Of a stretch of 32,000 nt of DNA, positions 6,928-26,527 are shown piece after piece. The position numbers and the translations under genes were made by a program. Origin of the DNA: Aliivibrio fischeri ES114 (GTDB taxonomy: Bacteria; Pseudomonadota; Gammaproteobacteria; Enterobacterales; Vibrionaceae); assembly GCF_000011805.1 (NCBI RefSeq), contig NC_006840.2; one strand, given 5' to 3'. Below the pieces are notes generated by a model, which saw only the letters and a program-made list of their open reading frames with translations, searched no databases and had not been told where the DNA came from. How positions within the stretch are numbered: the stretch's first letter is position 1; each line of letters starts with the position of its first letter.

Positions 6928-7932
6928 TTACTTACGTTTCTCTTTTAATTGTTCAATTACATATTCAGGCGCTACCTTTGCTAGCTCTTCTAAACAAGCA
7001 TCTGTTTTTTCATTTCCATAGCGTACATAAATATCACATACTGCATATAACTGCTCTGGCGAACCAGAAATTAAATACGCCTTTTCAAACGATTCAGTCG
7101 CTAATTTCACATCAATACTTTCTTGTAAAACACCATTCAAATACCAATAATAACTATTATTATCCGCTAATGTTGCTGCTGTCTGAATCGATTTAGCGGC
7201 GTCTTCTTTTTGATTTAAACGCACTTGAGTTAATGCTTTTGAATAAAATAAGCTCGGTTCTTTAGGTAATTGCTTTATACCTTGATTTAGCGTAACTAGC
7301 GCTTGTTCATCTTGATTTTGGCCACGGAAATTATCTGATAAATTCAACCATACTTCTGCATTTTCAGGTTCGGATTTAACTAATTTTTGATAAATAACAT
7401 CGGCTTTAGTCCACTCACCATGCCAGCGGTATATGTCTGCTAATTGCAGTTGAGTATCCTGTCTATTTTGCGATGTTAGAGTATCAACTAACTCTTTATA
7501 TACAGGTTCCATTTGAACCTGTTGTTCTGCCGTCATAGAACGATATTCACGCATTAAATTAATACCAGCAGCGAGACGAACACTCATTTCAGAATCACTC
7601 AATAACGGTGAAATCATTCTCCAACGATGAGATAACTTGTATAACTCTGATCCTGTAATTGCCGCTTCTCGGATAACCGGATTTGGATCTTTTAGCCCTC
7701 TAGCGACCGCAACCAAACTGTTTTGGTTAGGAAATCGAGCTAATTGGCGTAATGCATCTGCTCTATTTTCTATCGTTTCATTTTTATTTTGAGCCCTATA
7801 CGCTAATTCTTGCTCAGGGCTCATCTTTTGTGCTTGATTCACTGTCGGAGCTTGCTGAACACTGTCACTAGCAAATGAAGACGCAGAAAATCCCAATATG
7901 GATAACAAACTAATGCAGACTATTTTTTTCAT
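6928..7932 (-). CDS. Secreted HEAT/TPR-repeat protein, paralog of the C-terminal module of the octaheme cytochrome at 18002-20278
   Basis: Sec signal peptide MKKIVCISLLSILGFSASSFASD. A HEAT-like segment (ALRQLARFPNQNSLVAVARGLKDPNPVIREAA) is followed by TPR-like repeats. The protein is colinear over ~280 aa with the cytochrome C-terminus (RWRMISPLLSD/RWQIISPLLTD, YYWYLNG/QYWYVYG, SPEQLYAVCD...ACLEELAKVAP/NPQHLFAQCD...ACINELQKYAP). Confidence 0.8.
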   Translation of the reverse strand: MKKIVCISLLSILGFSASSFASDSVQQAPTVNQAQKMSPEQELAYRAQNKNETIENRADALRQLARFPNQNSLVAVARGLKDPNPVIREAAITGSELYKLSHRWRMISPLLSDSEMSVRLAAGINLMREYRSMTAEQQVQMEPVYKELVDTLTSQNRQDTQLQLADIYRWHGEWTKADVIYQKLVKSEPENAEVWLNLSDNFRGQNQDEQALVTLNQGIKQLPKEPSLFYSKALTQVRLNQKEDAAKSIQTAATLADNNSYYWYLNGVLQESIDVKLATESFEKAYLISGSPEQLYAVCDIYVRYGNEKTDACLEELAKVAPEYVIEQLKEKRK

Positions 7933-7985
7933 AAGGTACTCTTAAACGTACGATCTTAAAGATTAAATAATTAAAATTTAGATTA

Positions 7986-9302
7986 TTAAAACTTAGTAGG
8001 AAAAGCATTTTGGTGAACTTGCTGCATCTTCGCATCACTGTATTTACCGTGCTGAACAGGATTCCCTAGCATTTTCAATATATAAGCGATGGATTTATCA
8101 GCATGAGCAAAAAACTTCTTCCAACCTGCACACAGATAATTTAATCCAGGTTCACCATCACGTGTTTTAATAAAACGGTTTTTAGGACATTCACCATGAC
8201 ACGCAAATTTATATTCACACTTCTGACATTGAGTCGTTAACGTTTTTGATTTTGCAAAACCAAACTCTTGTTGCTTGCGGCTAAACGCTAATGTATCCAA
8301 CTCTTCATTATGAATATTTCCGATTTTATATTCAGGGTACACATAATGGTCACAAGCAAACACATCTCCATTGTGTTCCATTGCTAAGCCTTTTCCGCAA
8401 ATCTCACCTAATGTACATAATGGGTTTTTACGCCCCATCCATGTTTCAACACTGGCTTCAAAATACTGAACAAATACTTTACCTAGGTCATGCTGAGTCC
8501 ATTCATCAAATACAGCAATTAAGAAATTACCCCATGCTTCATCTGAAACACACCAAGGTTCCATAATGGATTCTTTATTACCTGGAATTAAACGTTTATC
8601 GCCTTGACGTAGCTGTGCTGCAATTTGCTCAGTTTGAGGAGCAACTGTTCTAAACGTTTTTTGCTCAACGATTGGAATAAACTGCATTTGTGGCGATTTC
8701 ACCACATCACGTAAGAATCGATATACCTCAAGAGGGTTTCGACTCGTTAAATTATTCACACACGTTAACGTGGCAAATTTCACATTATGTTTATGCAATA
8801 ATTCAACAGCGTTCATTACTTGCTTAAACGTACCGCGCCCCGCTTTGTTGGTGCGATAAGCATTGTGTAGCATTTCAGGTCCATCAATACTCAAACCAAC
8901 TAAAAAATTGTTTTCAGCAAGAAACTCACACCATTTATCGGTTAATAACGTACCGTTTGTCTGTAAATCATTAGAAATCAAGATCCCTTCAGGCTGATAT
9001 TTTTTTTGAAATTCAACAATTTTTTTAAAGTAATCAAGACCTAATAACGTCGGTTCACCACCTTGCCATGAGAAGATAATCTCTGGCGTGTTTTGTCCTT
9101 CAATATATTGACGAATATAAGTTTCAAGCGTTTCGTCATCCATTTGCGGTGAACAACCCTTTTTATACTCAAGTAAATCTTCTTTACTTAAGTAATAACA
9201 ATAAGAACAATCAATATTACATACAGCACCAATAGGCTTGGCCATAACATGTAATCGTTTTGATGCTTTACCTTGAAATTGTGGGCCTTGAGTAATGATC
9301 AT
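7986..9302 (-). CDS. Anaerobic sulfatase-maturating enzyme (radical SAM / SPASM, AslB/ChuR/AtsB type)
   Basis: Radical-SAM motif CNIDCSYC within HVMAKPIGAVCNIDCSYCYY, SAM-binding GGEPTL, and C-terminal SPASM cysteines including CQKCEYKFACHGEC (CX2CX5CX3C). RBS AGGA lies upstream of the ATG at 9302. Confidence 0.9.
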   Translation of the reverse strand: MIITQGPQFQGKASKRLHVMAKPIGAVCNIDCSYCYYLSKEDLLEYKKGCSPQMDDETLETYIRQYIEGQNTPEIIFSWQGGEPTLLGLDYFKKIVEFQKKYQPEGILISNDLQTNGTLLTDKWCEFLAENNFLVGLSIDGPEMLHNAYRTNKAGRGTFKQVMNAVELLHKHNVKFATLTCVNNLTSRNPLEVYRFLRDVVKSPQMQFIPIVEQKTFRTVAPQTEQIAAQLRQGDKRLIPGNKESIMEPWCVSDEAWGNFLIAVFDEWTQHDLGKVFVQYFEASVETWMGRKNPLCTLGEICGKGLAMEHNGDVFACDHYVYPEYKIGNIHNEELDTLAFSRKQQEFGFAKSKTLTTQCQKCEYKFACHGECPKNRFIKTRDGEPGLNYLCAGWKKFFAHADKSIAYILKMLGNPVQHGKYSDAKMQQVHQNAFPTKF

Positions 9303-9503
9303 ATTGATTCCTATTATTTTACGAATTTGGTTAAGTAGAACTTACCTAGCCAAAGAGAAAACCACCCTTATAGTTTTGCTGCTAAGTAAGTTCTAACTCT
9401 ATAATAAACCAAAAGAACTACTCTATTAGTTATATACGTTATTCCAATTTGGAATGTTAAGTTACTGTATGATAAACGTACAAAAATAACTGTTGAGGAT
9501 GTC

Positions 9504-10298
9504 ATGTTTAACGTCTCTTTTTTTACAAAAAACAAAACTTTTTTATCTATTTCACTCCTCTGCTTTGCTTTATTGGGATGTACAAGCACACCTCCACATC
9601 CTATCACTCAAAAAATTGAGCAAAACATGGTGTCCGTTCAAGGTGGAGAGTTTCAAATGGGCTCTAACGCCCCTGAAGCGAAAAAATCCGAAAAGCCAGA
9701 ACATTCTGTATTTGTTGATGATTTCTATATTTCTAAGTTCGAAGTTACTCAAGAAATTTTTGAATCAGTAATGGGCTCTTCTCTTAGCTATTTCCAAGAT
9801 CCTAATGTTCCAGTTAATAACTTAAGCTGGCAGCAGGCTAATTTTTTCATTCAAAAATTAAATGAGCTGACAGGTGAAACTTATCGACTACCAACCGAAG
9901 CTGAATGGGAATACGCTGCTCGTGGAGGAAATTTAAGTAAAGGTTATATCTATAGTGGTTCAAACAATATTGATGATGTGGCTTGGTACTCTAAAAACGC
10001 CAATAACCGTGCGCATCCAATTGGAATGAAACAACCAAATGAACTAGGCTTGTATGATATGACGGGGAACGTTGGTGAGTTTGTAAGTGACGCCTATGAT
10101 GATAATTTTTATCGCGTTTCACCAAAAAATAACCCTAACAACGCACGTGATGAAGCAAGTGGTTTAGTTCATAAATCAGTTCGCGGCAGTAGCTTTTCTT
10201 ACGATGCAGATGAATCAGAAAACTATCGACGTGATTTTGCCAGTCAGTCTATTATCATGTCGGATATGGGATTACGTTTAGTAAGAGATAAAAACTAA
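9504..10298 (+). CDS. FGE-sulfatase-fold (SUMF1/PvdO-family) lipoprotein lacking the FGE catalytic cysteines
   Basis: Lipobox LLGC. FGE-domain blocks GGEFQMGS, HSVFVDDFYISKFEVT, YRLPTEAEWEYAARGG, LGLYDMTGNVGEF and RGSSF. The only cysteines are in the signal peptide/lipobox. RBS GAGGA. Confidence 0.8.
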   Translation: MFNVSFFTKNKTFLSISLLCFALLGCTSTPPHPITQKIEQNMVSVQGGEFQMGSNAPEAKKSEKPEHSVFVDDFYISKFEVTQEIFESVMGSSLSYFQDPNVPVNNLSWQQANFFIQKLNELTGETYRLPTEAEWEYAARGGNLSKGYIYSGSNNIDDVAWYSKNANNRAHPIGMKQPNELGLYDMTGNVGEFVSDAYDDNFYRVSPKNNPNNARDEASGLVHKSVRGSSFSYDADESENYRRDFASQSIIMSDMGLRLVRDKN

Positions 10299-10343
10299 AC
10301 TAACTAAAAGTCTTCATTCAAAATTAATTCTTCACAAATAAAA

Positions 10344-10373
10344 ACAGCGCCGAAAATTCAGCGCTGTTTGTTT
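10344..10373. terminator. Bidirectional rho-independent terminator
   Basis: A-run, stem CAGCGC/GCGCTG (10345-10350 / 10361-10366), then TTTGTTT. It lies between the convergent FGE-like and LysR genes and overlaps the LysR stop codon. Confidence 0.6.
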
Positions 10374-11286
10374 AAAAGACATTTTTAGCTGCTTTTTGAA
10401 TTTGTTGTCGCAACCAACGATGGCCACTATCATTACTTCGACTTGGATGCCAAATGCTACATAAATCGTGTTGTTGACGATTCAAAGGTAAATCTAAAGA
10501 TTTCAAATTGTAGTAATCGCCTAAATCATCAATAGATGACTGAGGTAACATCCCAATCATCTCAGTAGACCCAATAATTGGCATCATTTCAAAGGCACCA
10601 GCTGCTCGAATAACAATATTACGAGCTTCTAATTCTCCAATATCTTCAGCATTCAATAAGCTGCTTCGGCTATGCCAACGAGACGCGGCAACATGCTCTT
10701 CACTTAAGAATTGTTCAAGGCTAATTGAATCCCCTATTCTTGGGTGATCTTTACTGCATACGACTCTTAATCTTTCAGTATAAACTACCTCAGATTTTAA
10801 AATAGTGCGTCCACGAATAGCCATATCAATCACCAGATCGTAACGCTGTAAACGTAAGTCTGACTCTAGATCTTCAGTAAATTGAGGATGTATTTCTAAC
10901 GAAATATTAGGTGCAGATGAACGAAGCTGTTTCACCAATTTTGGTATTAATGAATAATTCACCGTAGACACAACCGCAATTGAGAAAATTCGATTGGATG
11001 TCTTAGGATCAAATTCTCTTGATGCTGACAACGTAGAAGTAAAATTCTTAAGTGCTGCAGACATTGCGGGGTAAATATCTGAAGCAAAAACGGTGGGTTC
11101 TACTCCCGTCGTATTTCGATGAAAAAGTGCATCATCATAGATTTCTCGTAGACGTTTTAATGCTTTACTCACCGCAGGTTGGCTAATATTCATTCTTATT
11201 GCCGCCTTTGAGAGGTTTTTCTCTTCATAGATGGCGACAAAAATAGGGATCAAGTTTAGTTCTGTGCTTTTCATAATAACCGACAC
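10372..11286 (-). CDS. LysR-family transcriptional regulator
   Basis: N-terminal wHTH LSKAAIRMNISQPAVSKALKRLRE plus a C-terminal substrate-binding fold. GTG at 11286 is preceded by GGATGA; an alternative ATG lies at 11274. Confidence 0.85.
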   Translation of the reverse strand: MSVIMKSTELNLIPIFVAIYEEKNLSKAAIRMNISQPAVSKALKRLREIYDDALFHRNTTGVEPTVFASDIYPAMSAALKNFTSTLSASREFDPKTSNRIFSIAVVSTVNYSLIPKLVKQLRSSAPNISLEIHPQFTEDLESDLRLQRYDLVIDMAIRGRTILKSEVVYTERLRVVCSKDHPRIGDSISLEQFLSEEHVAASRWHSRSSLLNAEDIGELEARNIVIRAAGAFEMMPIIGSTEMIGMLPQSSIDDLGDYYNLKSLDLPLNRQQHDLCSIWHPSRSNDSGHRWLRQQIQKAAKNVF

Positions 11287-11364
11287 GGCTGATTCATCCT
11301 GATTTCACTTTATATAACTGAGCAGATGAAACAAGTGCAGTCCATCAGTTCTGTGTTGATTATC

Positions 11365-12675
11365 TTACTTTTTCGTTTTGCTTATTCGATACTTATTCAG
11401 CTGAGGCAAAGCTTTCTTAAATTTAATTATTTCACCTAATCGATATTTCGCCGTATCTCTACGATTAATTGCTTTCCACAACCGTTTAGATAGTGACGTT
11501 GTCACCTCTTCGTTTTGAAATTGTGTTGTTTCACTCTGCCATTCTTGCTTGCTTTCATACGCTTTGAGCTCAACGAGATGATCTGTTTCTCTTAATAAAC
11601 GATAAAGCAACATTCTAACTGTTCCCCATTCCTCTTGATTTACCGCTCTAGAATATACGAGCCATGCAGGAAGTGGATGAGTTTGATAATAACGCACGGT
11701 TTTAATAGCAGCGACGATAATAAGAAGAAGAATGAATACACAAACTGCGAATGGTTTCCAATATTCAATAAACCAAGAGCGCAAAGTGTGTGATACCGCA
11801 AAGGTTTGCCCTTCAATATTAATCGTTTTTAATTCACCTGCATCAACATCCCACCAAACTAACTCAAGAGCAGGAAACGTAACTTCTCCACCAGTTTGTA
11901 ATACATAAACTGAAGATTCTTCTCGTTGAGATAAATAGTCACCTCGAGTTTGTGTATCACTCAATTTAGGTGGTTGATTATAGGTTTGATAGTGCGTGCT
12001 TGATGTCGCTGGCAAAATCTCAGGGATCAACATTGCAAGTGTATCAGCCCCTTTAATCGTAATCGTACGAGTTATCGAATCGCCGGCTTCGAGTTCTGAA
12101 TTAGACGTATCCCATTTTTGTTGCACGGTAAAATCTAAACCAGACACCCATTGTTGTTTATCGTCAAGTAACCCAGACGGTTTAATTACTTTAAATGTTT
12201 GAGCTTGGGTATAAATGGTTCCTGAGACATTACCTACACCTTCTTTTGATACTTGCACTTTTACCGCCGCAGGAGGAATAACATAAGTACCTGCTTTTTG
12301 AGGATATAATGTCACTTCCCAGCGTTGGTGTGTCCAAGTTACTCCGTTTTTACGTTCTGTAAAATTAGTTGCAAGTTGATTACGTTGTTTAACTGCAACG
12401 TTGGGAATATCAATTGCAGCAATGCGAGTACCGCCTGTAAACCACCTTGGAGTAACCACTTCTATATACAAAATAATTTGTTGATTAATGGCATATGCTT
12501 TCTGCTCTTCATCTGTTTTTGATGGTTCACTTAACCACGTTTTAATCGAGACATTATCAGCACTTTCAAGTTTGTTCGCTGCATTGGATCTTGCACTGAA
12601 ACTTACCGTAATAAGCAGTACTATCATAAATACAAGAAGGTGTATTAAACGTCGTTTATCATTATGCTGAGACAT
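11365..12675 (-). CDS. batD: BatD-like (oxygen-tolerance family) membrane-anchored protein
   Basis: N-terminal signal/anchor, a large beta-rich exported domain and a C-terminal TM (FAVCVFILLLIIVAAI). It is the last gene of the MoxR-VWA operon, and its start overlaps the upstream stop (TAATG). Confidence 0.7.
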   Translation of the reverse strand: MSQHNDKRRLIHLLVFMIVLLITVSFSARSNAANKLESADNVSIKTWLSEPSKTDEEQKAYAINQQIILYIEVVTPRWFTGGTRIAAIDIPNVAVKQRNQLATNFTERKNGVTWTHQRWEVTLYPQKAGTYVIPPAAVKVQVSKEGVGNVSGTIYTQAQTFKVIKPSGLLDDKQQWVSGLDFTVQQKWDTSNSELEAGDSITRTITIKGADTLAMLIPEILPATSSTHYQTYNQPPKLSDTQTRGDYLSQREESSVYVLQTGGEVTFPALELVWWDVDAGELKTINIEGQTFAVSHTLRSWFIEYWKPFAVCVFILLLIIVAAIKTVRYYQTHPLPAWLVYSRAVNQEEWGTVRMLLYRLLRETDHLVELKAYESKQEWQSETTQFQNEEVTTSLSKRLWKAINRRDTAKYRLGEIIKFKKALPQLNKYRISKTKK

Positions 12676-14372
12676 TATTTCACCTCTTCATTTTGCATTT
12701 GTGTATTACTTGTTTGTTCACGAAGTTGTAATTGGAACTTGGCACGCAAGAAATATTTTGGGTCAGCCTCAACACGACGAAGCCATTTGTCCGCCAACTC
12801 TTGGCTTCCTAAGATCTCATTTGCATTTAAACTTTCTTTCGTCATTAAAGAAGAGTCCACTTCTTCATCTGCACCATCACCGGTTCTAGGCTTATCATCA
12901 CCCAGTTCAAATGACTCTTCTGGGCCATCGGTCGTGCCTTTTTGGCTTTCACTCATCCGATTGACCTCATCAACAATGCCTTGCATGACGTTTAAGTTAT
13001 TCTGCGTTTTTTCTTTTAAATCAGGATCGAGATCTTTCTTTAACAACATACGATAGATGTTTCTCGCAGCAACATATTCTCTTTGTCGAGCCAACGCATT
13101 TGCAGCATTAAACATTCCTAAATCAGATTTCACAGCAATAAAAGCACTGTGAGCTAACTTATACTCACCTGCATAATAATACGCAGTACCCTTCATTAAT
13201 GGGTCTTGATAACTTTTTGCTGCTTTTAAATATTCTGATTTATCAAAATACCATTGCCCTTGTTGATCGGGGGTTAACCACAAATCCATCCACCAATCTG
13301 TCGTTTTTTCCCATAAAGTCACTTCTTTAACAGGTTCTTGAGTTTTCGCTTTTAAACTTACGGTTTCTGCATACGTTGGCACTGAATAAAATGTAGGGGA
13401 AACCAATACCACCACGAGGCACCATTTCACTAACCACCCCTTTCTGAACCATGACAACATAAGTAATGAAACAGGAAATAGTAGGTAGTAACCCATGTCT
13501 TTCCACGGCATAGCTGATTCATTATTTAATTGCATATGTCGCTCGACTCTACTGTTTAAGCTACGAACATCGCTATCATCCACAGTAACGCTTATAACGC
13601 TTCCACCACTTTTACTTGCTAATTTTTTTAATGAGGCATAATCCATCGGATTCTCACTCGCTCTGTTTTCATTGCCGGCAGCAAGCACAAGCAGCTGATG
13701 ACGACTCTTAGAAAAGTATTTCTCATAAGCCGCGATGGTTTCAGGGTTAGCGCCATCCGTAATTAATAACACGGTTCCCGCACTCTCTGTCCCTAATTGA
13801 GGCTCAATGAGTGGTAATGCACTTTCTGCATTCTTCCCTTCTATAGGCATGATATCTGGCTGAATCGCTGCTAAGAATGGCGCAAAAACGGAGTTATCTT
13901 TGGTTAACGGCATAGCCAAGTGTGAAGTTCCCGAAAAGACAACAAGCCCTGTTTTCCCACCTTTACGTAATGCAATCAAATCTCGAATTTTTTGCTTAGA
14001 GCGCTCTAATCGATTCGGAGCTAGATCTTTTTGCAACATGGATTCACTATTATCTAATACAATAAGCAATGCGGCTTTATCTTCACCAAATGGCGAAGCC
14101 TCACGCTCCCATGTAGGACCAGCACAAACCACAATGGCTACGAGCATAGAAGCAGCCAATAATTTTAGTGGTAGTTGTTTTTTCCAACCAACATCATTGA
14201 CCGTTAGCACTGAACGAAGGTGTTTTGGTAATTCTTGTTGCCACTCATTTTTACTGTCTTGTTTCCAACGTAAATAAATAACAATACTTAATGGAATCAA
14301 GGCCAATAGCCATAGTGGACGAATAAAATGAAATTCATTGACAATTTGTTGCCACATCAGAAGATCAAACAT
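12675..14372 (-). CDS. batB: VWA-domain plus TPR membrane protein (BatB/BatC-like fusion)
   Basis: N-terminal TM segments. MIDAS motif DNSES in LLIVLDNSESM and LLITDG. A mid-protein TM is followed by TPR-like repeats (YYYAGEYKLAHSAF..., ALARQREYVAARNIY) and an acidic tail. I prefer the start at MFDLLMWQQ (14372), which gives the 8-nt overlap ATGTTTGA with batA, over the track start at 14456. Confidence 0.75.
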   Translation of the reverse strand: MFDLLMWQQIVNEFHFIRPLWLLALIPLSIVIYLRWKQDSKNEWQQELPKHLRSVLTVNDVGWKKQLPLKLLAASMLVAIVVCAGPTWEREASPFGEDKAALLIVLDNSESMLQKDLAPNRLERSKQKIRDLIALRKGGKTGLVVFSGTSHLAMPLTKDNSVFAPFLAAIQPDIMPIEGKNAESALPLIEPQLGTESAGTVLLITDGANPETIAAYEKYFSKSRHQLLVLAAGNENRASENPMDYASLKKLASKSGGSVISVTVDDSDVRSLNSRVERHMQLNNESAMPWKDMGYYLLFPVSLLMLSWFRKGWLVKWCLVVVLVSPTFYSVPTYAETVSLKAKTQEPVKEVTLWEKTTDWWMDLWLTPDQQGQWYFDKSEYLKAAKSYQDPLMKGTAYYYAGEYKLAHSAFIAVKSDLGMFNAANALARQREYVAARNIYRMLLKKDLDPDLKEKTQNNLNVMQGIVDEVNRMSESQKGTTDGPEESFELGDDKPRTGDGADEEVDSSLMTKESLNANEILGSQELADKWLRRVEADPKYFLRAKFQLQLREQTSNTQMQNEEVK

Positions 14373-15435
14373 GCTTTTCTCCTGCTTTTTTTGAAGAAGA
14401 TGAAAAATGACGTCTAATAGTGGCGAAACCAAAGGCAAACAAATACATCGCAACAATTAGCATTGCTGGGTATTGGTGAATTGACTGCTTTGGTCGGTAA
14501 GTCGTACTTTCATAAAGCTGAGGCTCTAACTCACCAATTTCATCATAAGCTTGTTCTAATTCATCACGGTTAATCGCCTGGAATGCTTTACCTCCAGACT
14601 CTTTAGCAACACGATTAATGATGTTCATATCCAATGCTTGCTCACCCACAGTTCGAGGATCACCCATTGCAATCATATGTATACGCACGTCTTTCGCTGC
14701 TGCAACTTTTGCGGCATCAATAGGTTCAACATAACTGCCAGTGTCGTTACCATCCGTTAAAACAATTGCGACTTTTTCTCGTGGTTTTGCATTTTCTTCT
14801 GCTGACGCTTTATCTTCGCTGCTCTGCTCAAACACTTTAATCGCAAGGCCGATAGCGTCACCTAGATGGGTACTTTGCCCTGCCATTGCAACGTCTGTTT
14901 GATTCAACAATTCAAGCCAAACGGATTGATCAGCCGTGAATGGCGTTTGTACAAAGGCGGCATCGCCAAATAAAATAAGTCCTAAACGATCCCCTTTACG
15001 TGTCTTAACAAAATCGGCTAATACTTCCTTTGTTGCTTCTAGACGTGAAATCTTCTTTACTGCGCCTAAATCTGACGATTGTTTAGAGACAAAATCTTGC
15101 TCAGCCATTGAACCAGATAAATCCACCACAACCATGACATCACGACCTAAACTTTCACGGGTTTGTGGCTCTCCTAATATCGTAGGCTTTGTTAAAGCAA
15201 AAATAAGCAGACACCACGACACAACCAAAAATGCTTTTTGCCATAAACTTGCACTTAATTGACTCGCACCTTCTGATGGTTCCTCATCTAAAGCTTTAAC
15301 CAATACATCAAAAAATGGCACTTTAATCGCTGATTGACGTGTTCGATATGCAGGTATAAACCAATATATTATCAGTGGTAAAGGAAGCATCCATAACCAA
15401 TATGGATTTGCTAATTCAAGTTGATCAAACGGCAT
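14365..15435 (-). CDS. batA: VWA-domain membrane protein (BatA-like)
   Basis: Two N-terminal TM helices, MIDAS motif DLSGS in VVVDLSGSMAEQDF, IVLTDGNDTGS, and a C-terminal TM. The start overlaps the upstream gene by 11 nt. Confidence 0.8.
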   Translation of the reverse strand: MPFDQLELANPYWLWMLPLPLIIYWFIPAYRTRQSAIKVPFFDVLVKALDEEPSEGASQLSASLWQKAFLVVSWCLLIFALTKPTILGEPQTRESLGRDVMVVVDLSGSMAEQDFVSKQSSDLGAVKKISRLEATKEVLADFVKTRKGDRLGLILFGDAAFVQTPFTADQSVWLELLNQTDVAMAGQSTHLGDAIGLAIKVFEQSSEDKASAEENAKPREKVAIVLTDGNDTGSYVEPIDAAKVAAAKDVRIHMIAMGDPRTVGEQALDMNIINRVAKESGGKAFQAINRDELEQAYDEIGELEPQLYESTTYRPKQSIHQYPAMLIVAMYLFAFGFATIRRHFSSSSKKAGEKHV

Positions 15436-15964
15436 AATCCTCTCCTTTTTTAATATCTTGGCTCGCCGTTTTTATATCTTTATGACTTTCTAACCAATCG
15501 ATACACAACGCAAATAAGGCTGCAATTTCTTGTTCATTTAATGCTTTTTGTGATTGAACTAATGAGCGCATCCATTTTTCACCTAATTCTGAATGAAATG
15601 TCTCTTTGTCATCGTTTCCATATGAATCAAGTGCCTTCAAAAAAGCATCTCCAAATTGATTAGAGCGACTCGGGTCGATATACACTAATACCGCTTTCAT
15701 CACTTCAAATATTTCATAACTGATAGATTGATTAGGTACTTGTGAATCTCGCAGTAATAAAATTACATCCAATGCTTCACGACGATAGCGATTTATCCAC
15801 CATCGTTTTAGCCATAGCACACTTTTGTAGACAATAAATGCAAGCAATACAAATGCGAGAATTTTCCATCCAATGGTCTGAGGAAACCAACTGACGTGTT
15901 CAGGAACCGTCACTTCACTTAATTTTTTTAATATATAACTGCTAGGTGGCTGATGTATGCTCAT
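15425..15964 (-). CDS. DUF4381-family membrane protein
   Basis: Pattern VSWFPQTIGWKIL, a TM segment, then RWWINRYRREAL matches the DUF4381 signature seen between DUF58 and VWA genes in MoxR operons. ATGA overlap with the DUF58 gene. Confidence 0.7.
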   Translation of the reverse strand: MSIHQPPSSYILKKLSEVTVPEHVSWFPQTIGWKILAFVLLAFIVYKSVLWLKRWWINRYRREALDVILLLRDSQVPNQSISYEIFEVMKAVLVYIDPSRSNQFGDAFLKALDSYGNDDKETFHSELGEKWMRSLVQSQKALNEQEIAALFALCIDWLESHKDIKTASQDIKKGEDYAV

Positions 15965-16902: not shown

Positions 16903-16907
16903 AAGCC

Positions 16908-17978: not shown

Positions 17979-17993
17979 ATAACTATTGGTTAT
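17979..17993. promoter_or_regulatory. Dyad ATAACTATTGGTTAT (T-N11-A, LysR-type box) upstream of moxR
   Basis: Perfect ATAAC/GTTAT inverted repeat with an N5 spacer, 57 nt upstream of the moxR ATG. A minus-strand TACAAT -10 candidate lies at 17966-17961. It is one of four related copies in the window. Confidence 0.6.
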
Positions 17994-18001
17994 ACACATC
18001 A

Positions 18002-20278: not shown

Positions 20279-20424
20279 ATATATCCTTATACATCTTGAC
20301 CATAATTCTGATTTCAAAAGTAAACAAATAGCGATAAGTTAGATATAGTTCACTTGTTGTAAACTTTCCATTTAACTCATTGATTTTGCGTGTTCCCTCT
20401 TAATTTCTATTGCAATGCTTTTAT

Positions 20425-20450
20425 ATAAAAAGGGGCTCCGAAGAGCCCTC
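20425..20450 (-). terminator. Rho-independent terminator after the leftward sulfatase gene
   Basis: Stem GGGCTC/GAGCCC with a CGAA loop. The T-run is on the minus strand (plus-strand A-run 20427-20431). Confidence 0.7.
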
Positions 20451-20478: not shown

Positions 20479-22026
20479 TTACTTACTATGAGGCTGTTGA
20501 AGTTTTTCCATTACCTGATCAAGACTGAAGCTTGCCGCTTTTTGACGAGGTGGGAATTCTTCAAATGTTTCTAAGTATTTTCCTACATAAGCTTGCGCTG
20601 GTACGAACATATAAGCGTGGTCTAACAACCAGTCATAATAAGTATTCGACGTTACATCAGCGACTTCATATGGGTCCATACGTAAGTTAAACAGTTTAGG
20701 CACACGTAATGTTACAAACGGTTCAGCCCAAATTTGAAGCGTGCCCTTCACACGTTGCTCCATAAATACGGCTTTCCACTTGTTATAACGAAGTGCAGCT
20801 AAATCACCATCATCCGTGAAGTAGAAAATTTCTTCACGACGGCCTTCTTTTTCTTTACCCGTTAAATAAGGTAAGAAGTTATAACCATCTAAGTGATTTT
20901 TAAAACTCTTATTACCAAGTTTTGTTCCTTTTTTCAGATCATCTTTAATATGATCATTACCAGCAGCTGCTGCAAAAGTTGGTAGCCAATCCATGTGGTG
21001 CATAATTTCATTCGATACTACACCTGGTTCAATTTTTCCTGGCCAACGCACCATTGCAGGAACACGATATGCCCCTTCCCAGTTTGTATTTTTCTCACTA
21101 CGGAACGGGGTTGTACCCGCATCCGGCCATGAGTTCATATGAGGGCCATTATCGGTAGAATAGAAAACAATGGTGTTATCTTTAATACCTAGTTTATCCA
21201 CTGTTTTTAAAAGTTCACCAACGTGGTTATCGTGCTCAACCATACCATCAGCATAGTTACTAATGCCTGTTGAACCTTGTAATTCAGGTTTTACGTGAGT
21301 TCTAAAGTGCATACGCGTGGCGTTCCACCATACAAAGAATGGCTTATCCGCTTTTACCGCTCGTCCCATAAAATCAATAGCTGCAGAAACCGTTTCATCA
21401 TCCACCGTTTCCATACGCTTACGAGTTAGAGGACCTGTATCTTCAATTTTTCCATCAGCAAAAGATTTAATTACACCACGAGGGCCAAATTTTTTGCGGA
21501 ATTCAGGATCTTTTGGATAGTCAATATTTTCAGGCTCTTCTTCAGCATTTAGGTGGTAAAGGTTACCAAAAAATTCGTCAAAGCCATGTGCTGTAGGAAG
21601 GAATTCGTCTTTATCACCAAGGTGGTTTTTACCAAATTGCCCTGTCATGTATCCCATAGGTTTAAGTACTTCAGCGATCGTTGCATCTTCAGCTTGTAGA
21701 CCGATATCTGCACCAGGTAATCCAACTTTACTTAGACCTGTACGTAGAACACTTTGTCCTGTGATAAAAGTTGATCGACCAGCGGTACATGATTGCTCAC
21801 CATAATAATCAGTAAACATCATGCCTTCTTTAGCAATACTATCGATATTTGGTGTTTTATATCCCATTAAACCAAAAGTATACGCACTGATATTAGACTG
21901 ACCGATATCATCGCCCCAAATAACCAGAATATTTGGCTTCTCTGCTGCTAATGTATACCCCGAAGCTCCCATTAACACTGCACTTAGTATTGTTAATCTA
22001 CGCTTCGTTCCTTTTTTGACTTCCAT
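20479..22026 (-). CDS. Exported Cys-type sulfatase (arylsulfatase family), paralog 1
   Basis: Signal peptide, metal-binding IWGDDIG, active-site SCTAGRSTFITG (Cys codon 21787-21789) and GKNHLGD. I prefer the start at MEVKKGTKRR (22026, RBS AGGAG) over the track start at 22110. Confidence 0.9.
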   Translation of the reverse strand: MEVKKGTKRRLTILSAVLMGASGYTLAAEKPNILVIWGDDIGQSNISAYTFGLMGYKTPNIDSIAKEGMMFTDYYGEQSCTAGRSTFITGQSVLRTGLSKVGLPGADIGLQAEDATIAEVLKPMGYMTGQFGKNHLGDKDEFLPTAHGFDEFFGNLYHLNAEEEPENIDYPKDPEFRKKFGPRGVIKSFADGKIEDTGPLTRKRMETVDDETVSAAIDFMGRAVKADKPFFVWWNATRMHFRTHVKPELQGSTGISNYADGMVEHDNHVGELLKTVDKLGIKDNTIVFYSTDNGPHMNSWPDAGTTPFRSEKNTNWEGAYRVPAMVRWPGKIEPGVVSNEIMHHMDWLPTFAAAAGNDHIKDDLKKGTKLGNKSFKNHLDGYNFLPYLTGKEKEGRREEIFYFTDDGDLAALRYNKWKAVFMEQRVKGTLQIWAEPFVTLRVPKLFNLRMDPYEVADVTSNTYYDWLLDHAYMFVPAQAYVGKYLETFEEFPPRQKAASFSLDQVMEKLQQPHSK

Positions 22027-22130
22027 ATAAACTCCTGTTTCCATTGATAAAAAGAGCATCATTAAAGGTATAGTACATAAACCTAAAACTAACAACGGAA
22101 TATACAACAATAATTTTACTTTTTAACTAC

Positions 22131-22145
22131 ATAACCACTAGTTAT
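22131..22145. promoter_or_regulatory. Dyad ATAACCACTAGTTAT (reverse complement ATAACTAGTGGTTAT) centred in the divergent sulfatase intergenic region
   Basis: It lies 104 nt from the leftward sulfatase start codon and 105 nt from the rightward one. An extra ATAAC half-site sits at 22153-22157. Confidence 0.6.
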
Positions 22146-22250
22146 GAACTTAATAACCAATTTCAGTACATCGTTTTTTCCGTATTTGCAGGATAATGCA
22201 GATCCCTTTCCAATATTATCTAGCTGAAATCATTCCTTCAGGAGATAGCG

Positions 22251-23801
22251 ATGAACAAAATAGTAAAAAAAACCGCCATTGCAACAGGCCTTGCTTTATC
22301 AGGGATCCAAGTAGCTTATGCTGCTGCTCAACCGAATATCCTTGTCATTTTTGGTGATGATATTGGTTATGGAAACATCTCTGCTTATAACCAAGGTATG
22401 CTCGGCTACCAAACGCCAAATATCGATAGCATTGCAAATGATGGGGCTCTCTTTACGTCTTATTACGGTCAACAATCTTGTACCGCTGGTCGCTCAGCTT
22501 TCATCACTGGTCAAATGCCCGTCCGTACAGGTCTAACTAAAGTTGGATTACCAGGAGCAAAACAGGGTTTACAAGCACAAGACATCACTCTTGCTCAAAC
22601 TTTAAAAGACCAAGGTTACGTTACTGGTCAATTTGGTAAAAACCACCTTGGTGACCGCGATGACATGCTGCCAACCAACCATGGTTTTGATGAATTTTTT
22701 GGTAACCTTTACCACCTAAATGCAGAAGAAGAACCAGAAAATGCAGACTACCCTAAAGACCCAACCTTCCGTAAAAACTTTGGGCCTCGTGGCGTTATTC
22801 ATTCATACGCAGATGGAAAAATTGAAGATACAGGTCCTCTAACTCGTAAACGCATGGAAACGGTTGATGAAGAAACGATGGATGCGGCGATGGACTTTAT
22901 GACCAGAGCAGTAAAAGCAGACAAACCTTTCTTCACTTGGTACAACGCAACTCGAATGCATATCAAAACTCACGTCAAAGCCGAGAATTCAGGAAAAACC
23001 GGACTTGGTGATTATGCAGATGGTATGGTTGAACATGACAACATTGTTGGAGACCTACTTGATAAAGTCGATGATCTAGGCATCAGTGATAACACTGTCA
23101 TCATTTACACAACCGATAACGGTCCAATGAATGCGACATGGCCTGATGCGGCCTTCAGTCCATTCCGTGGTGAGAAAAATACAGGTTGGGAAGGCGGTTT
23201 CCGTGTACCTGCAGTCATTAAATGGCCTGGACACATCAAACCTGGCACAAAACTTAATGGCATGTTTGCTGGTGAAGACTGGCTACCAACACTAACAGCA
23301 ATCGCTGGTAATAAAGACATTAAGCAAGAGCTACTTAAAGGCTACAAAGCGGATAATGGCAAAACGTATAAAAACCATCTAGACGGTTATAACCAAGTTA
23401 ACTACCTAACAGGTAAATCAAAAGAAAGTGCTCGCCAAGAGTTCTTCTACTGGTCTGATGATGGTGAATTACTGGCTATGCGTGATGGTCGCTGGAAAAT
23501 GCACTTCAAGATCCAAGAAAACCAAGGTTGGAAAGTATGGACTCGTGAATTTACAAATCTACGTATTCCTATGATTTTCGATCTACAAGTAGATCCATAC
23601 GAAAAAGCAGATCAAGGATTTGGATATGATTCATGGGTTTTTGATCATGTATTTTTGCTAGTCCCTACTCAAGCAAAAGTAGCAAAAATGATTGAAAGCT
23701 TTAAAGAGTTCCCACCACGTCAAGAAATTCCAAGCTTCTCTGTCGACAAAGTAATGGAACAGATGAAAAACATGGAAAAAGTAGCTAACGCTAGTAAATA
23801 A
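22251..23801 (+). CDS. Exported Cys-type sulfatase (arylsulfatase family), paralog 2
   Basis: Signal peptide MNKIVKKTAIATGLALSGIQVAYA, IFGDDIG, SCTAGRSAFITG (Cys codon 22479-22481) and GKNHLGD. By eye about 70% identical to paralog 1. RBS AGGAG. Confidence 0.92.
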   Translation: MNKIVKKTAIATGLALSGIQVAYAAAQPNILVIFGDDIGYGNISAYNQGMLGYQTPNIDSIANDGALFTSYYGQQSCTAGRSAFITGQMPVRTGLTKVGLPGAKQGLQAQDITLAQTLKDQGYVTGQFGKNHLGDRDDMLPTNHGFDEFFGNLYHLNAEEEPENADYPKDPTFRKNFGPRGVIHSYADGKIEDTGPLTRKRMETVDEETMDAAMDFMTRAVKADKPFFTWYNATRMHIKTHVKAENSGKTGLGDYADGMVEHDNIVGDLLDKVDDLGISDNTVIIYTTDNGPMNATWPDAAFSPFRGEKNTGWEGGFRVPAVIKWPGHIKPGTKLNGMFAGEDWLPTLTAIAGNKDIKQELLKGYKADNGKTYKNHLDGYNQVNYLTGKSKESARQEFFYWSDDGELLAMRDGRWKMHFKIQENQGWKVWTREFTNLRIPMIFDLQVDPYEKADQGFGYDSWVFDHVFLLVPTQAKVAKMIESFKEFPPRQEIPSFSVDKVMEQMKNMEKVANASK

Positions 23802-23814
23802 CATGAATAAGATT

Positions 23815-23840
23815 TAGGGCTCATATGGGCCCTATTTTGC
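23815..23840 (+). terminator. Weak candidate terminator or attenuator between sulfatase 2 and the AraC gene
   Basis: Stem TAGGGC/GCCCTA with an 8-nt loop followed by only TTTT. It is short and could permit read-through. Confidence 0.35.
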
Positions 23841-23869
23841 TATTTATAAGATACATAAAGGTGAAACCC

Positions 23870-24775
23870 ATGCAGACAAATGCAGACTTTACATTTGATG
23901 AGTTCAGTGAAAAATTATGGTCAATATTTCATGGACAAGCATTGATCACAAAATTTAGTTTTCCATTAAATGACGCCTGTTTCACGTTTAAATCTCTAAA
24001 ACGAAATAATGTAAATTTTTACCTATTTGAAAGCCCTGATCCATTATCTTTATTCAGTTTTCACCTTCCTTCTACATCACAGCCAAAAACATTGTTATTA
24101 CTCGATGTAGATAATGCTGGAATGCTTTTCAATGGAATTCTATGTGAGGAGCATCAATTTGCGTTAATTTCAGAAAAAAGCCAGCAACCATTTTGTTTAC
24201 AAATACCAGCTCACAGCCCTATTTTAGTATGTGATATCAATACCGATAACAAACAGTTTCATCAACTTTGCGGTAGTTTAGTACCTGTTGGGATTGATAT
24301 AAAATACGCAGAAGAATTAAAAATTGCCGTTCGTAATGCAAATAATATGTTTCCAAATAATCATTCCAATGTAGGTGCAACCTTATTGATGCATATTGTT
24401 GAGCTTTTATCTTTACATCCAATTCCAATGCGTCGCCAAGCATTAATGGGAAGAAGTCGTTTACCAAGACGCAATTTTATTCCTAAATGCATTGATTATA
24501 TGATGGAGATGTCCTCAACTGAGGCAATTAAACAACTCTCCAAAGAACGAAATATTTCAGAAAAAACCATTAGAAATGCATTTAAAGAAACAACAGGGTT
24601 CACCCCTAAAGAGTTTGAACAAATCAGTAAACTTTTTGCATTTCGTCGGGCCTTAAAGCAACCAGATATTAAAACTGTTTTTGAAGCAGCTATTGCGAGT
24701 GATGTGTATCGCTGGTCTCGTTATGCTAGTCGTTATTTTAAGATTTTTAATGAGTTACCAATTCAAACTCTTTGA
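23870..24775 (+). CDS. AraC/XylS-family transcriptional regulator
   Basis: C-terminal double HTH (ISEKTIRNAFKETTGFTPKEF ... SRYASRYFKIFNELP). The N-terminal ~190 aa has no recognisable ligand domain. I prefer the start at MQTNADF (23870) over 23825. Confidence 0.75.
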   Translation: MQTNADFTFDEFSEKLWSIFHGQALITKFSFPLNDACFTFKSLKRNNVNFYLFESPDPLSLFSFHLPSTSQPKTLLLLDVDNAGMLFNGILCEEHQFALISEKSQQPFCLQIPAHSPILVCDINTDNKQFHQLCGSLVPVGIDIKYAEELKIAVRNANNMFPNNHSNVGATLLMHIVELLSLHPIPMRRQALMGRSRLPRRNFIPKCIDYMMEMSSTEAIKQLSKERNISEKTIRNAFKETTGFTPKEFEQISKLFAFRRALKQPDIKTVFEAAIASDVYRWSRYASRYFKIFNELPIQTL

Positions 24776-24855
24776 GAAAGCTCTCAATTCACCTGAGTCA
24801 CAAGCGTGAACAAATAAAGCAAAATACCTATAGATTCAATAAGATAAATAACAAG

Positions 24856-24870
24856 ATAACTTTTGGTTAT
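24856..24870. promoter_or_regulatory. Dyad ATAACTTTTGGTTAT upstream of the third sulfatase gene
   Basis: It lies 85 nt upstream of the ATG at 24956 and differs by one base from the moxR-proximal copy. An extra ATAAC half-site sits at 24848-24852. Confidence 0.6.
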
Positions 24871-24955
24871 AAAGTCTATAAAGCGACGATTTAAAAATAT
24901 TTATTTATGATCTCCGCGAATTAAACACGACTATAACTATTATTTGGAGTTATTT

Positions 24956-26527
24956 ATGGGTAATCATTTAAGTAAGATTGCTGTTGGAGTTGGTCTGCTT
25001 GCAACCTCTAGTGCAGCAATGGCAGCAGCGCAACCTAACATACTTGCTATTTTTGGTGATGATGTTGGTTATTGGAACATTAGCGCCTACAACCAAGGAA
25101 TGATGGGTTATAAAACACCTAACATCGATCGTATCGCGAATGAAGGTGCATTGTTCACTGATCACTATGGCCAACAATCTTGTACTGCTGGACGTGCTGC
25201 TTTCATTACAGGTCAAGAACCTTTCCGTACGGGTCTATTAACCATTGGCATGCCAGGTTCTGATCATGGTATTCCTGATTGGGCTCCAACCATTGCCGAT
25301 CTTCTTAAAGATCAAGGCTACATGACGGCACAATTTGGTAAAAACCACCTTGGTGACCAAGATAAACATCTTCCAACCAATCACGGTTTTGACGAATTCT
25401 TCGGTAACCTTTACCACCTAAATGCCGAAGAAGAGCCAGAAACTTACTACTACCCTAAAGATCCTGAGTTCCGTAAAAATTATGGTCCACGTGGTGTAAT
25501 TAAATCTTATGCTGATGGTAAGATTGAAGATACCGGCCCAATGACTCGTAAGCGTATGGAGCACGCAGATGAAGAGTTCTTAGATTCTTCATTAGCATTT
25601 ATGGAAAAAGCGGTAAAAGCGGATAAACCTTTCTTTATCTGGCACAACACAACTCGCATGCACGTTTGGACTCGTCTACAAGAAAAATACCAAGGTAAAT
25701 CAGGCGTAAGTATTTATGCTGATGGTATGCTTGAGCACGATGACCAAGTTGGTATCCTACTTGATAAACTGGATGAGCTTGGTGTAGCAGATAACACGAT
25801 CGTTATTTATTCAACCGATAACGGTGCAGAAACAGTAACATGGCCTGACGGCGGTGCTACACCATTCTATGGTGAAAAAGGCACAACATGGGAAGGTGGT
25901 ATGCGTGTACCACAACTTGTTCGTTGGCCGGGAACTATTAAACCTGGAACAAAAATCAATGAAATGATGGCGCACCAAGATTGGCTTCCAACTTTACTTG
26001 ATGCTGCTGGTGTTCCAAACGTAAAAGAAAAACTTGCTAAAGGCTATAAAGCCAACGGTAAAGAGTTCAAAGTTCATATCGATGGTTACGATTTCAAACC
26101 ATTCTTTGAAGGAAAAGTAGATAAAGGTCCTCGTGAATCACTGCTTTACTTCACTGCAAATGGTGAGTTGAATGCCGTTCGCTGGCAAGATTGGAAACTG
26201 AACTTCGCAATAATGGAAGGTAATATTTCTGATGCAGTTCGTTTGTCACCAAACTGGCCTCAAATCATCCACCTACGTGCGGACCCATTTGAAAAAGCAC
26301 CGCATGAATCAGGCATGTACTTACGTTGGATGGCAGATAACATGTGGTTATTCGTACCAATGCAAGACGTATTAGCTGAGTTCTTTAATACTCTACCTGA
26401 TTACCCAATGCAAATGAGTACTCAAATGAACCCTGCAGCTATCAGTGCACAATCACTTGGCTTAAAAGCGAAAATGCAACAGCTAGATAAGCTTCAAGCT
26501 CAAATGAATAAACTAAATGCTAAATAG
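24956..26527 (+). CDS. Exported Cys-type sulfatase (arylsulfatase family), paralog 3
   Basis: Signal peptide MGNHLSKIAVGVGLLATSSAAMA, IFGDDVG, SCTAGRAAFITG (Cys codon 25181-25183) and GKNHLGD. RBS GGAG lies upstream of the ATG at 24956; the track TTG start at 24944 is less likely. Confidence 0.9.
   Translation: MGNHLSKIAVGVGLLATSSAAMAAAQPNILAIFGDDVGYWNISAYNQGMMGYKTPNIDRIANEGALFTDHYGQQSCTAGRAAFITGQEPFRTGLLTIGMPGSDHGIPDWAPTIADLLKDQGYMTAQFGKNHLGDQDKHLPTNHGFDEFFGNLYHLNAEEEPETYYYPKDPEFRKNYGPRGVIKSYADGKIEDTGPMTRKRMEHADEEFLDSSLAFMEKAVKADKPFFIWHNTTRMHVWTRLQEKYQGKSGVSIYADGMLEHDDQVGILLDKLDELGVADNTIVIYSTDNGAETVTWPDGGATPFYGEKGTTWEGGMRVPQLVRWPGTIKPGTKINEMMAHQDWLPTLLDAAGVPNVKEKLAKGYKANGKEFKVHIDGYDFKPFFEGKVDKGPRESLLYFTANGELNAVRWQDWKLNFAIMEGNISDAVRLSPNWPQIIHLRADPFEKAPHESGMYLRWMADNMWLFVPMQDVLAEFFNTLPDYPMQMSTQMNPAAISAQSLGLKAKMQQLDKLQAQMNKLNAK

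Follow-up and report, generated by a model that had tools for sequence, protein, structure and literature searches.

The 32,000-nucleotide stretch of Aliivibrio fischeri ES114 DNA considered here (the window) contains a cluster of 15 genes in which three sulfatase genes are found together with a gene for a sulfatase maturase, a MoxR/VWA block of the "Bat" type, and a gene for an octaheme cytochrome fused to HEAT/TPR repeats (Table 1). Genes were assigned from a listing of open reading frames (ORFs) and from Pfam and NCBIfam scans, and motifs were read by eye from the translations. An earlier note on this DNA, drawn from the letters alone, had given the same content and order, and each of the 15 genes was recovered at its coordinates. 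Several listed ORFs probably begin too far 5': likelier starts are ATG 20278 for the cytochrome, a position near METGVYMEVKK for sulfatase 1 (Sulf1), whose homologs align only from about residue 23-27 of the listed ORF, and ATG 14372 for the VWA/TPR protein (listed as 12675-14456), which would overlap the batA stop by 8 nt. An Rfam scan of the whole window gave no match.

Table 1. Genes and dyad motifs of the sulfatase locus, numbered from the first letter of the window.
Feature	Position	Strand or location	Basis
HEAT/TPR protein, secreted, 334 aa	6928-7932	(-)	Pfam TPR/HEAT matches
anSME (radical SAM/SPASM)	7986-9302	(-)	TIGR03942; Radical_SAM and SPASM domains
FGE-fold lipoprotein	9504-10298	(+)	PF03781, E 3e-44
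LysR-family regulator	10372-11286	(-)	HTH_1 and LysR_substrate domains
BatD	11365-12675	(-)	PF13584, 37.9 bits (cut-off 24.1)
VWA/TPR protein (BatB/C-like)	12675-~14372	(-)	VWA_2; weak C-terminal TPR_16
VWA protein (BatA-like)	14365-15435	(-)	VWA_2
DUF4381 protein	15425-15964	(-)	Pfam DUF4381
DUF58 protein	15961-16902	(-)	Pfam DUF58
MoxR	16908-17921	(-)	AAA_3 PF07726, E 1.8e-61; AAA_lid_2 PF17863, E 1e-22
Octaheme cytochrome::HEAT/TPR	18002-20317	(-)	8 CXXCH; Pfam cytochrome and TPR matches
Sulfatase 1 (Sulf1), Cys-type CTAGR	20479-22110	(-)	PF00884, E 6.5e-51
Sulfatase 2 (Sulf2), Cys-type CTAGR	22251-23801	(+)	PF00884, E 3e-46
AraC-like regulator	23825-24775	(+)	HTH_18 below Pfam cut-off; weak EutR/AndR matches
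Sulfatase 3 (Sulf3), Cys-type CTAGR	24944-26527	(+)	PF00884, E 1e-56
Dyad ATAACTATTGGTTAT	17979-17993	upstream of moxR	exact match
Dyad ATAACCACTAGTTAT	22131-22145	divergent Sulf1/Sulf2 promoter region	exact match
Dyad ATAACTTTTGGTTAT	24856-24870	upstream of Sulf3	exact match
Fourth dyad	26337	within Sulf3	exact match

The three sulfatases are paralogs with 56-62% identity to one another, and all contain the sequence QSCTAGR. Sulf2, called divergent in the earlier note, is not notably so, being 62% identical to Sulf1. The features of S1 sulfatases are present, namely a PF00884 domain, the CTAGR motif, and the DD, GKNHLG, and DNG motifs recognized by eye, and the best match to a solved structure is the arylsulfatase 7AJ0 (E 2e-57). 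Sulf1 is the ortholog found directly upstream of the cytochrome gene or moxR in other genomes, with 80-99% identity across the Vibrionaceae and 61-66% identity to the sulfatases of rhizobial and Burkholderia clusters. Sulf3 is conserved at 76-96% identity and is divergently oriented from Sulf1 in most Vibrionaceae. The Sulf1 signal peptide contains RR, and twin arginines are found in many Sulf1-type signals (KRRLAIL in Vibrionaceae, SRRLLS in Rhizobium, TRRSILLGG and DRRSLLLGG in Sinorhizobium); the sulfatases of Bacteroidota and Nitrincolaceae clusters have Sec-like signals. All sulfatases inspected in related clusters are CTAGR enzymes except in the V. parahaemolyticus clade, where a Ser-type (STAGR) sulfatase is encoded directly upstream of the maturase gene; in V. 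parahaemolyticus this gene occupies L001:13302-14828, ahead of anSME and moxR. The V. parahaemolyticus arylsulfatase vpa0680 is reported to be induced 7- to 60-fold in HeLa infection (PMC3895804), and could not be mapped to this cluster. A paper on an acesulfame sulfatase of Shinella was judged unrelated.

The moxR, DUF58, DUF4381, BatA-like, BatB/C-like, and batD genes form a block read in one direction (11365-17921, minus strand), with junctions that overlap or nearly abut. MoxR has a Walker A sequence (GLPGTAKT), the sequence LADEINR, and the AAA_3 and lid domains, and the MIDAS (metal ion-dependent adhesion site) motif, DxSxS, is seen by eye in both VWA proteins. The gene set (moxR, DUF58, membrane protein, VWA, VWA, TPR, BatD) is that of a Bat-type operon, the TPR element being weak and placed at the C-terminus of the second VWA protein. 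The two VWA proteins are relatives rather than equivalogs of Leptospira BatA and BatB, because their scores fall far below the cut-offs of the NCBIfam models (118.7 bits against 380 for NF047508, and 55 against 350 for NF047506). The composition is also Mxa-like, with MoxR, a DUF58-type protein, and two VWA proteins beside a periplasmic metalloenzyme. By the positive-inside rule, applied by eye, MoxR and the DUF58 protein would be cytoplasmic, the DUF4381 protein would span the membrane once with its C-terminus in the cytoplasm, and the periplasmic parts would be the two VWA domains, the TPR tail, and the greater part of BatD. The cytochrome, the HEAT/TPR protein, and the FGE-fold lipoprotein are likewise predicted by eye to be exported.

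The radical-SAM sulfatase maturase proposed earlier is indeed an anaerobic sulfatase-maturating enzyme (anSME), scoring 494.8 bits with the equivalog model TIGR03942 (cut-off 349.45) and containing a CX3CX2C motif. The lipoprotein encoded next to it has the formylglycine-generating enzyme (FGE) fold, or FGE-sulfatase fold, and lacks the copper-binding catalytic Cys pair (CxxxxC after RGGS): it has zero Cys after the lipobox, and the RGGSYLC of the S. coelicolor FGE aligns to RGSSFSY. An assignment as aerobic FGE was rejected because this Cys pair is absent. The closest solved structure is the non-enzymatic Treponema protein TvpA (2Y3C), and in other marine Gammaproteobacteria the orthologs encoded beside the cytochrome are secreted proteins that also have no CxxxxC. 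The lipoprotein resembles pFGE or TvpA, as a putative non-catalytic relative located where a new sulfatase arrives. Genuine FGEs take the place of anSME in related clusters of Rhizobium, Methylobacterium, Burkholderia, Cupriavidus, and Fulvitalea. Those of Burkholderia (L092), Cupriavidus (L100), and Fulvitalea (L095), which contain RGGSFLCxxxxC, have an N-terminal hydrophobic anchor, RRR, or lipobox. Such N-termini suggest extracytoplasmic FGEs, which would need copper, O2, and reductant outside the cytoplasm.

The cytochrome has exactly eight CXXCH motifs and a HEAT/TPR C-terminus and qualifies as a multiheme c-type cytochrome; it has 96% identity to an A. fischeri protein. Of 12 full-length relatives, 10 keep all eight motifs and two are truncated ORF calls, and conservation of the heme motifs and of the HEAT Arg/Asp positions reaches from Aliivibrio to Alloyangia, Methylosinus, Rhizobium, and Aureibacter (Alphaproteobacteria and Bacteroidota). 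In an AlphaFold2 model built on a 41-sequence alignment the C-terminal solenoid is confident and the heme core has a predicted local distance difference test score (pLDDT) below 50. In the comparison with known octaheme enzymes (OTR, MccA, ONR/HAO), a search of solved structures with the cytochrome returned only TPR matches and short heme-motif matches (6I5B, 6QVM), none of them significant for the heme domain. The 334-aa HEAT/TPR protein is a heme-less paralog of cytochrome residues 474-764 (34% identity, E 1e-56); its gene stands alone downstream of anSME, and orthologs are found 11-16 kb from moxR in two other Vibrio.

The association of these genes extends well beyond A. fischeri. Of the 577 cytochrome relatives that a scan of one genome per species gave, the 80 best (47-96% identity) were used as loci; they come from Aliivibrio, Photobacterium, Vibrio, Moritella, Shewanella, Colwelliaceae, Thalassotalea, Litorilituus, Alginatibacterium, Cellvibrionaceae, and Nitrincolaceae. 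Neighbors were called by tblastn with the window proteins. A sulfatase paralog lies within 10 kb of the cytochrome in 69 of the 80 loci, and in 63 it is directly upstream on the same strand; the MoxR/Bat block is within 10 kb in 64, with moxR directly downstream in 58. Both partners are present in 60 loci, a sulfatase without Bat in 9, Bat without a sulfatase in 4, and neither in 7, and the neighbors of stand-alone cytochromes are unrelated genes. Gene order varies from the sulfatase, FGE-fold, cytochrome, moxR through batD arrangement of the Colwellia type to the V. parahaemolyticus clade, in which LysR, Ser-type sulfatase, and anSME genes are inserted between the cytochrome and moxR, and to one Shewanella locus in which the Bat block is inverted. 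The AraC-like regulator gene is found, among the related loci compared, in some Aliivibrio loci only.

Searches seeded from MoxR against annotated plasmids and chromids (tblastn) carry the link into other classes. The nearest non-Vibrio MoxR proteins (50-57% identity) belong to Rhizobiaceae, Azospirillum, Rhodobacterales, Burkholderiaceae, Enterobacterales, and, in the Bacteroidota, Persicobacteraceae. Plasmids of Rhizobium rhizogenes and Agrobacterium tumefaciens encode, in order, an arylsulfatase, MoxR, DUF58, DUF4381, two VWA proteins, BatD, FGE, and a HAD hydrolase. A sulfatase with 61-66% identity to Sulf1, and so more conserved than MoxR itself, is encoded within 10 kb in Caballeronia, Burkholderia, Sinorhizobium, and Ensifer, its side and strand varying, and Persicobacter, Fulvitalea, and Alloyangia have a paralog 62-65% identical to the sulfatases of the window within 4 kb of moxR. 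MoxR and Sulf1 homologs are less than 8 kb apart in 20 of the 24 records that matched both searches (several strains per species included), and a concatenated Sulf1 and MoxR query found 31 plasmid records with both genes in one place on the same strand, including those of Paracoccus yeei, Pantoea, Rahnella, and Klebsiella aerogenes. On Pantoea agglomerans pCB1A a single operon encodes a FadL/TodX channel, an arylsulfatase, anSME, MoxR, DUF58, DUF4381, two VWA proteins, BatD, and HAD, with overlaps between the anSME stop and the moxR start and between the batD stop and the HAD gene start; the K. aerogenes cluster is similar, and some annotations call the enterobacterial copies an "aerotolerance operon". 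The cytochrome is absent from most of the non-Vibrio MoxR-sulfatase loci.

No sulfatase was found in the Bat-like operons of MoxR homologs at 42-47% identity (Paroceanicella, Sagittula, and Mycolicibacterium) or beside the Bat-like operon of a 55% identical MoxR paralog in Vibrio campbellii. In a neighbor-joining tree without support values the sulfatase-linked MoxR proteins form one clade, with Cupriavidus and Photobacterium DA100 nested in it as exceptions. The Cupriavidus metallidurans CH34 megaplasmid (L100) has parts of two MoxR/Bat modules in a 21-kb stretch with an FGE gene between them and no sulfatase gene; the sole Sulf1-type gene of this megaplasmid lies about 1 Mb from these modules. 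A further recurrent member of the sulfatase clusters is the secreted HAD hydrolase of about 330 aa (PF12710, DNDGTLW motif), encoded in Rhizobium, Agrobacterium, Alloyangia, Fulvitalea, Methylobacterium, Pseudoalteromonas, Pantoea, Klebsiella, and a few Vibrio (for example L084:17407-18423, L101:8432-9403, L111:17659-18672, and L103:7822-8793, and in the Vibrio loci L037, L048, L056, and L060); the A. fischeri window has no such gene.

The 7.3 Gb of the plasmid collection contain 383 places with a Sulf1-type gene, about one per 19 Mb, and the chance of finding one within 20 kb is therefore about 0.1% overall, and no more than a few percent on rhizobial replicons rich in sulfatases. As the cause of the adjacency between sulfatase and MoxR/Bat genes, coincidence is effectively excluded. 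Co-transfer adds to the counts, yet it leaves unexplained how the pairing survives so many rearrangements. The gene-neighborhood statistics called for in the earlier note have thus come out in its favor, with the sulfatase-MoxR/Bat pairing recurring in Alpha-, Beta-, and Gammaproteobacteria and in Bacteroidota under varying gene order. The link holds for one MoxR/Bat clade and does not extend to Bat operons generally.

The cytochrome has its own pattern of association with sulfatases. A tblastn search of plasmids with its heme domain returned 149 records, mostly from Rhizobium and Sinorhizobium, and a subset of the contexts was inspected. Methylosinus and Methylocystis have a long arylsulfatase gene with the cytochrome gene directly after it; R. 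leguminosarum has the order arylsulfatase, HAD, cytochrome; Pseudoalteromonas has HAD, cytochrome, arylsulfatase; a V. coralliilyticus plasmid has cytochrome, TetR, arylsulfatase; and in Alloyangia the cytochrome follows batD. Aureibacter has a sulfatase-like gene, cytochrome b, a Rieske protein, and the cytochrome, with a second arylsulfatase nearby. Two inspected contexts, those of Alteromonas pAlt76 and Qingshengfaniella, contain no sulfatase, and a search of the long (750-820 aa) sulfatases beside the cytochrome found no fusion to a partner domain. The paired sulfatases are 22-66% identical to the window enzymes and represent several subfamilies from Alpha- and Gammaproteobacteria and Bacteroidota; the role of the cytochrome is therefore likely to be tied to a property that sulfatases share and not to one substrate. 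The cytochrome would then be a second, separable sulfatase-associated accessory, separate from the MoxR block. That it is required for the MoxR-sulfatase link was considered and rejected, as it is absent from most non-marine clusters. The functional link between MoxR/VWA proteins, cytochrome, and sulfatases suggested in the earlier note is accordingly favored by the recurrent linkage and by the conserved dyad described below, but as two separable modules and not as one machine.

In Aureibacter tunicatorum pAT1 (L105:7111-11205) the genes before the cytochrome homolog encode a cytochrome b (PF00033, E 4e-45) and an annotated Rieske iron-sulfur subunit, a single case that suggests that the octaheme cytochrome may be connected to, or fed from, the quinol pool. 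Another adjacency of Bat and cytochrome genes is known from an unrelated lineage, the Tenderiales, where genes for BatA/B/D, an NrfG-like TPR protein, and ccsAB are reported to be conserved beside a multiheme cytochrome (uet) cluster (bioRxiv 10.1101/2022.05.06.490989).

The sulfatase genes and the MoxR/VWA block also have a sequence element in common, as the earlier note had observed. Four exact copies of the dyad ATAAC-N5-GTTAT are present in the window, where 0.02 would be expected. Conservation extends across the Vibrionaceae: about 51 loci have the dyad 61-189 bp (mostly 61-109 bp) upstream of moxR, and about 38 have it 35-291 bp (mostly 190-290 bp) upstream of Sulf1. Because the dyad is conserved upstream of both, the sulfatase genes and the moxR operon are considered to have a common operator. 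In the V. parahaemolyticus clade the dyad lies between anSME and moxR, and in V. diabolicus it lies upstream of anSME; among the related loci scanned, it was not found in those of the Colwellia and Shewanella types. In its T-N11-A form the dyad is like typical LysR-type sites, and a lysR gene follows batD in most Vibrionaceae loci, making its product the candidate binder. Terminator-like hairpins are present after Sulf1 (20433-20448), Sulf3 (26542-26577), and the HEAT/TPR gene (6864-6900), and at the convergent LysR/FGE-fold pair; the window scan found none between the cytochrome gene and moxR or between batD and lysR.

Taken together, the locus is best read as periplasmic Cys-type arylsulfatases accompanied by dedicated sulfatase accessory systems, a reading to which we give a probability of roughly 55%. 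Cytoplasmic anSME would convert the Cys of CTAGR to formylglycine (FGly). After export, the MoxR module (MoxR, DUF58, DUF4381, two membrane-anchored VWA proteins, and BatD) would act on the sulfatase and complete its active site, most likely by loading the catalytic divalent metal (Ca2+) or by keeping the enzyme loadable, as MxaR/S/A/C/K/L do for methanol dehydrogenase. The cytochrome, its heme-less paralog, and the Cys-less FGE-fold lipoprotein would constitute the second module, in which the HEAT/TPR and FGE folds may bind the sulfatase and the hemes may connect it to the respiratory chain, and the LysR-type regulator would co-regulate moxR and the sulfatase genes through ATAAC-N5-GTTAT. Activation in the periplasm is proposed because mxa is the best-documented system of the same composition and because S1 sulfatases, too, are located in the periplasm and have a divalent metal at the catalytic site. 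Deletion of mxaR, S, A, C, K, or L yields a Ca2+-free methanol dehydrogenase that is rescued by Ca2+ in vitro (PMC12276312). That Ca2+ loading specifically is what the MoxR/VWA proteins perform is a tentative extension of this analogy, and on balance doubtful. The sulfatase as client, which sets the direction of the relationship, and the chemistry, whether metal loading, protection, or redox, are both inferred. A more far-reaching scheme, which we consider improbable, would place the cytochrome and the FGE-fold protein in a route in the periplasm, coupled to the respiratory chain, for making, completing, or maintaining the FGly of exported sulfatases, with MoxR/VWA assembling or loading the active site; the cytochrome would supply electrons to O2-dependent FGE chemistry or accept those from Cys/Ser oxidation.

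Several observations weigh against dedicated accessory systems for sulfatases. Related S1 sulfatases have been produced in active form in E. coli, a host without this kind of module, and the MoxR module is therefore not universally required. Sea water is rich in Ca2+, so that the need for a dedicated loader is not obvious, and a hydrolase has no evident need for a cytochrome, whose heme core is modeled poorly and has no solved-family match. The partners are sometimes solitary: same-clade MoxR genes in Cupriavidus and Photobacterium DA100 have no sulfatase in cis, and Sulf1-type genes lack MoxR/Bat in cis in Methylobacterium, Leptolyngbya, and the 9 cytochrome loci noted above. The twin-arginine signals of Sulf1-type enzymes leave room for a role in export or quality control, and the outer-membrane channels for aromatic compounds beside some clusters fit a catabolic reading. 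Many examples are located on plasmids or chromids, where co-transfer and repeated strains of one species inflate the counts, and the neighbors were called by tblastn with window proteins and the MoxR tree has no support values.

The catabolic reading holds that the cluster serves aryl-sulfate utilization, with the cytochrome oxidizing or reducing the released phenolic or quinol aglycones and MoxR/VWA maturing the cytochrome or another envelope component. Channels that hint at aryl-sulfate substrates are encoded beside the Rhizobium cluster (Phenol_MetA_deg, E 7e-55, L084:19059-20045) and the Pantoea cluster (FadL/TodX, E 1e-54, L111:7589-8773), an aryl-sulfate sulfotransferase gene lies near the sulfatase-cytochrome pair in Methylosinus, and the cytochrome b and Rieske genes directly upstream of the cytochrome in Aureibacter, as well as the BatABD genes adjoining multiheme cytochrome clusters in Tenderiales, agree with such a role. 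We nevertheless regard it as unlikely, as the cytochrome is paired with unrelated sulfatase subfamilies with presumably differing substrates, the MoxR-sulfatase link persists without the cytochrome in Rhizobium, Agrobacterium, Burkholderiaceae, Persicobacter, and Pantoea, and FGE or anSME genes are placed inside the same operons. A role for MoxR/VWA in export, for example by twin-arginine translocation (Tat), or in quality control of the folded sulfatase in place of metal loading would account for the twin arginines of many Sulf1-type signals and for the predicted cytoplasmic location of MoxR and DUF58, and mycobacterial MoxR1 has reportedly been linked to Tat export of RipA. Given the Sec-like signals in the Bacteroidota and Nitrincolaceae clusters and the VWA, TPR, and BatD parts predicted by eye to be periplasmic, this reading is quite unlikely. 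Least probable, indeed very improbable, is coincidence or co-transfer alone, in which a Bat-like operon with a general function in the envelope or in aerotolerance is simply carried along with sulfatase genes by mobile DNA. The plasmid or chromid location of many instances and the solitary members of each family would be expected under co-transfer; the retention of the pairing through many changes of order and strand in four classes, the overlapping stop and start codons in Pantoea, the conserved common operator, and a chance rate near 0.1% per 20 kb would not.

To the right of the cluster lie three overlapping ORFs which, as far as can be told, are unrelated to the sulfatase and MoxR genes. 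A small ORF beginning MMARPKKCRRI (27434-27721) overlaps a gene for a NifX/NifB-like protein with a Nitro_FeMo-Co domain (27721-28161; PF02579, E 5e-13), which in turn overlaps an ORF for a Cys-rich 65-aa membrane protein (28158-28355). Several small ORFs without a family match occupy 26590-27217 and 29806-30459, and the 217-aa secreted protein encoded at 29806-30459 had no match in Pfam or NCBIfam.

The widespread MoxR/DUF58/VWA "Bat" operons have, to our knowledge, been without a known substrate since 1999. A conserved arylsulfatase neighbor, easily assayed with colorimetric substrates in A. fischeri, Pantoea, Klebsiella, and Rhizobium, makes the question of a Bat client testable. If these sulfatases do need activation in the periplasm, this would matter for heterologous sulfatase production and for the use of sulfated compounds by marine and host-associated bacteria. 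The recurrent pairing of a hydrolase with an octaheme cytochrome bearing a protein-binding solenoid is unexpected and hints at unrecognized redox chemistry in sulfatase biogenesis. Should the respiratory FGly route prove true, it would constitute a third kind of sulfatase maturation and would make Bat-type modules periplasmic enzyme activators.

MoxR/VWA modules dedicated to an adjacent metalloenzyme are already known from Mxa, NorQ/NorD, and CbbQ/CbbO; what appear to be undescribed are a clade of the Bat-type module dedicated to sulfatases and an octaheme cytochrome::HEAT/TPR protein associated with them. No description of links between sulfatases and MoxR/Bat, DUF4381/DUF58, or multiheme cytochrome genes was found in the literature, with an earlier mention in work on MoxR evolution being possible. 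The classical two-gene systems of Klebsiella (AtsA/AtsB) and of Bacteroides anSME similarly place a sulfatase gene alongside that of a radical-SAM/SPASM maturase, and we know of no described MoxR/VWA, cytochrome, HAD, or FGE-fold partner of an AtsA/AtsB-type system. With pFGE (SUMF2) the A. fischeri lipoprotein has in common an FGE fold without catalytic Cys, in the compartment where a newly exported sulfatase arrives; it differs from FGE and pFGE (SUMF1/SUMF2) in being a bacterial lipoprotein with TvpA as its nearest structure, and its binding of sulfatase is putative. The Bat operons of Bacteroides and spirochaetes have moxR, DUF58, small membrane protein, batA, batB, TPR, and batD genes in the same order, whereas in the A. 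fischeri locus batE is absent and BatB and BatC seem to be fused, and the clade of the window is sulfatase-linked whereas the more distant Bat-like operons inspected are not. NorQ/NorD, CbbQ/CbbO, and CoxD/E/F are likewise composed of an AAA+ protein and a VWA partner dedicated to an adjacent metalloenzyme, but they come from different MoxR subfamilies, act on cytoplasmic or membrane clients, and are without the DUF58, DUF4381, and BatD set. Mxa, like the A. fischeri locus, combines a MoxR-class AAA+ protein and a DUF58/VWA-like protein with two VWA proteins and with small membrane proteins, and in both the genes adjoin those of a periplasmic Ca2+-dependent enzyme and of a c-type cytochrome; all six mxa genes are needed for Ca2+ incorporation (PMC12276312). 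The two differ in that the client is a pyrroloquinoline quinone (PQQ) dehydrogenase in Mxa and, as proposed, a hydrolase (the S1 sulfatase) here, that BatD and a VWA-TPR fusion are found in the A. fischeri locus, and that the mxa cytochrome is the electron acceptor of its enzyme, a role not evident for the octaheme cytochrome.

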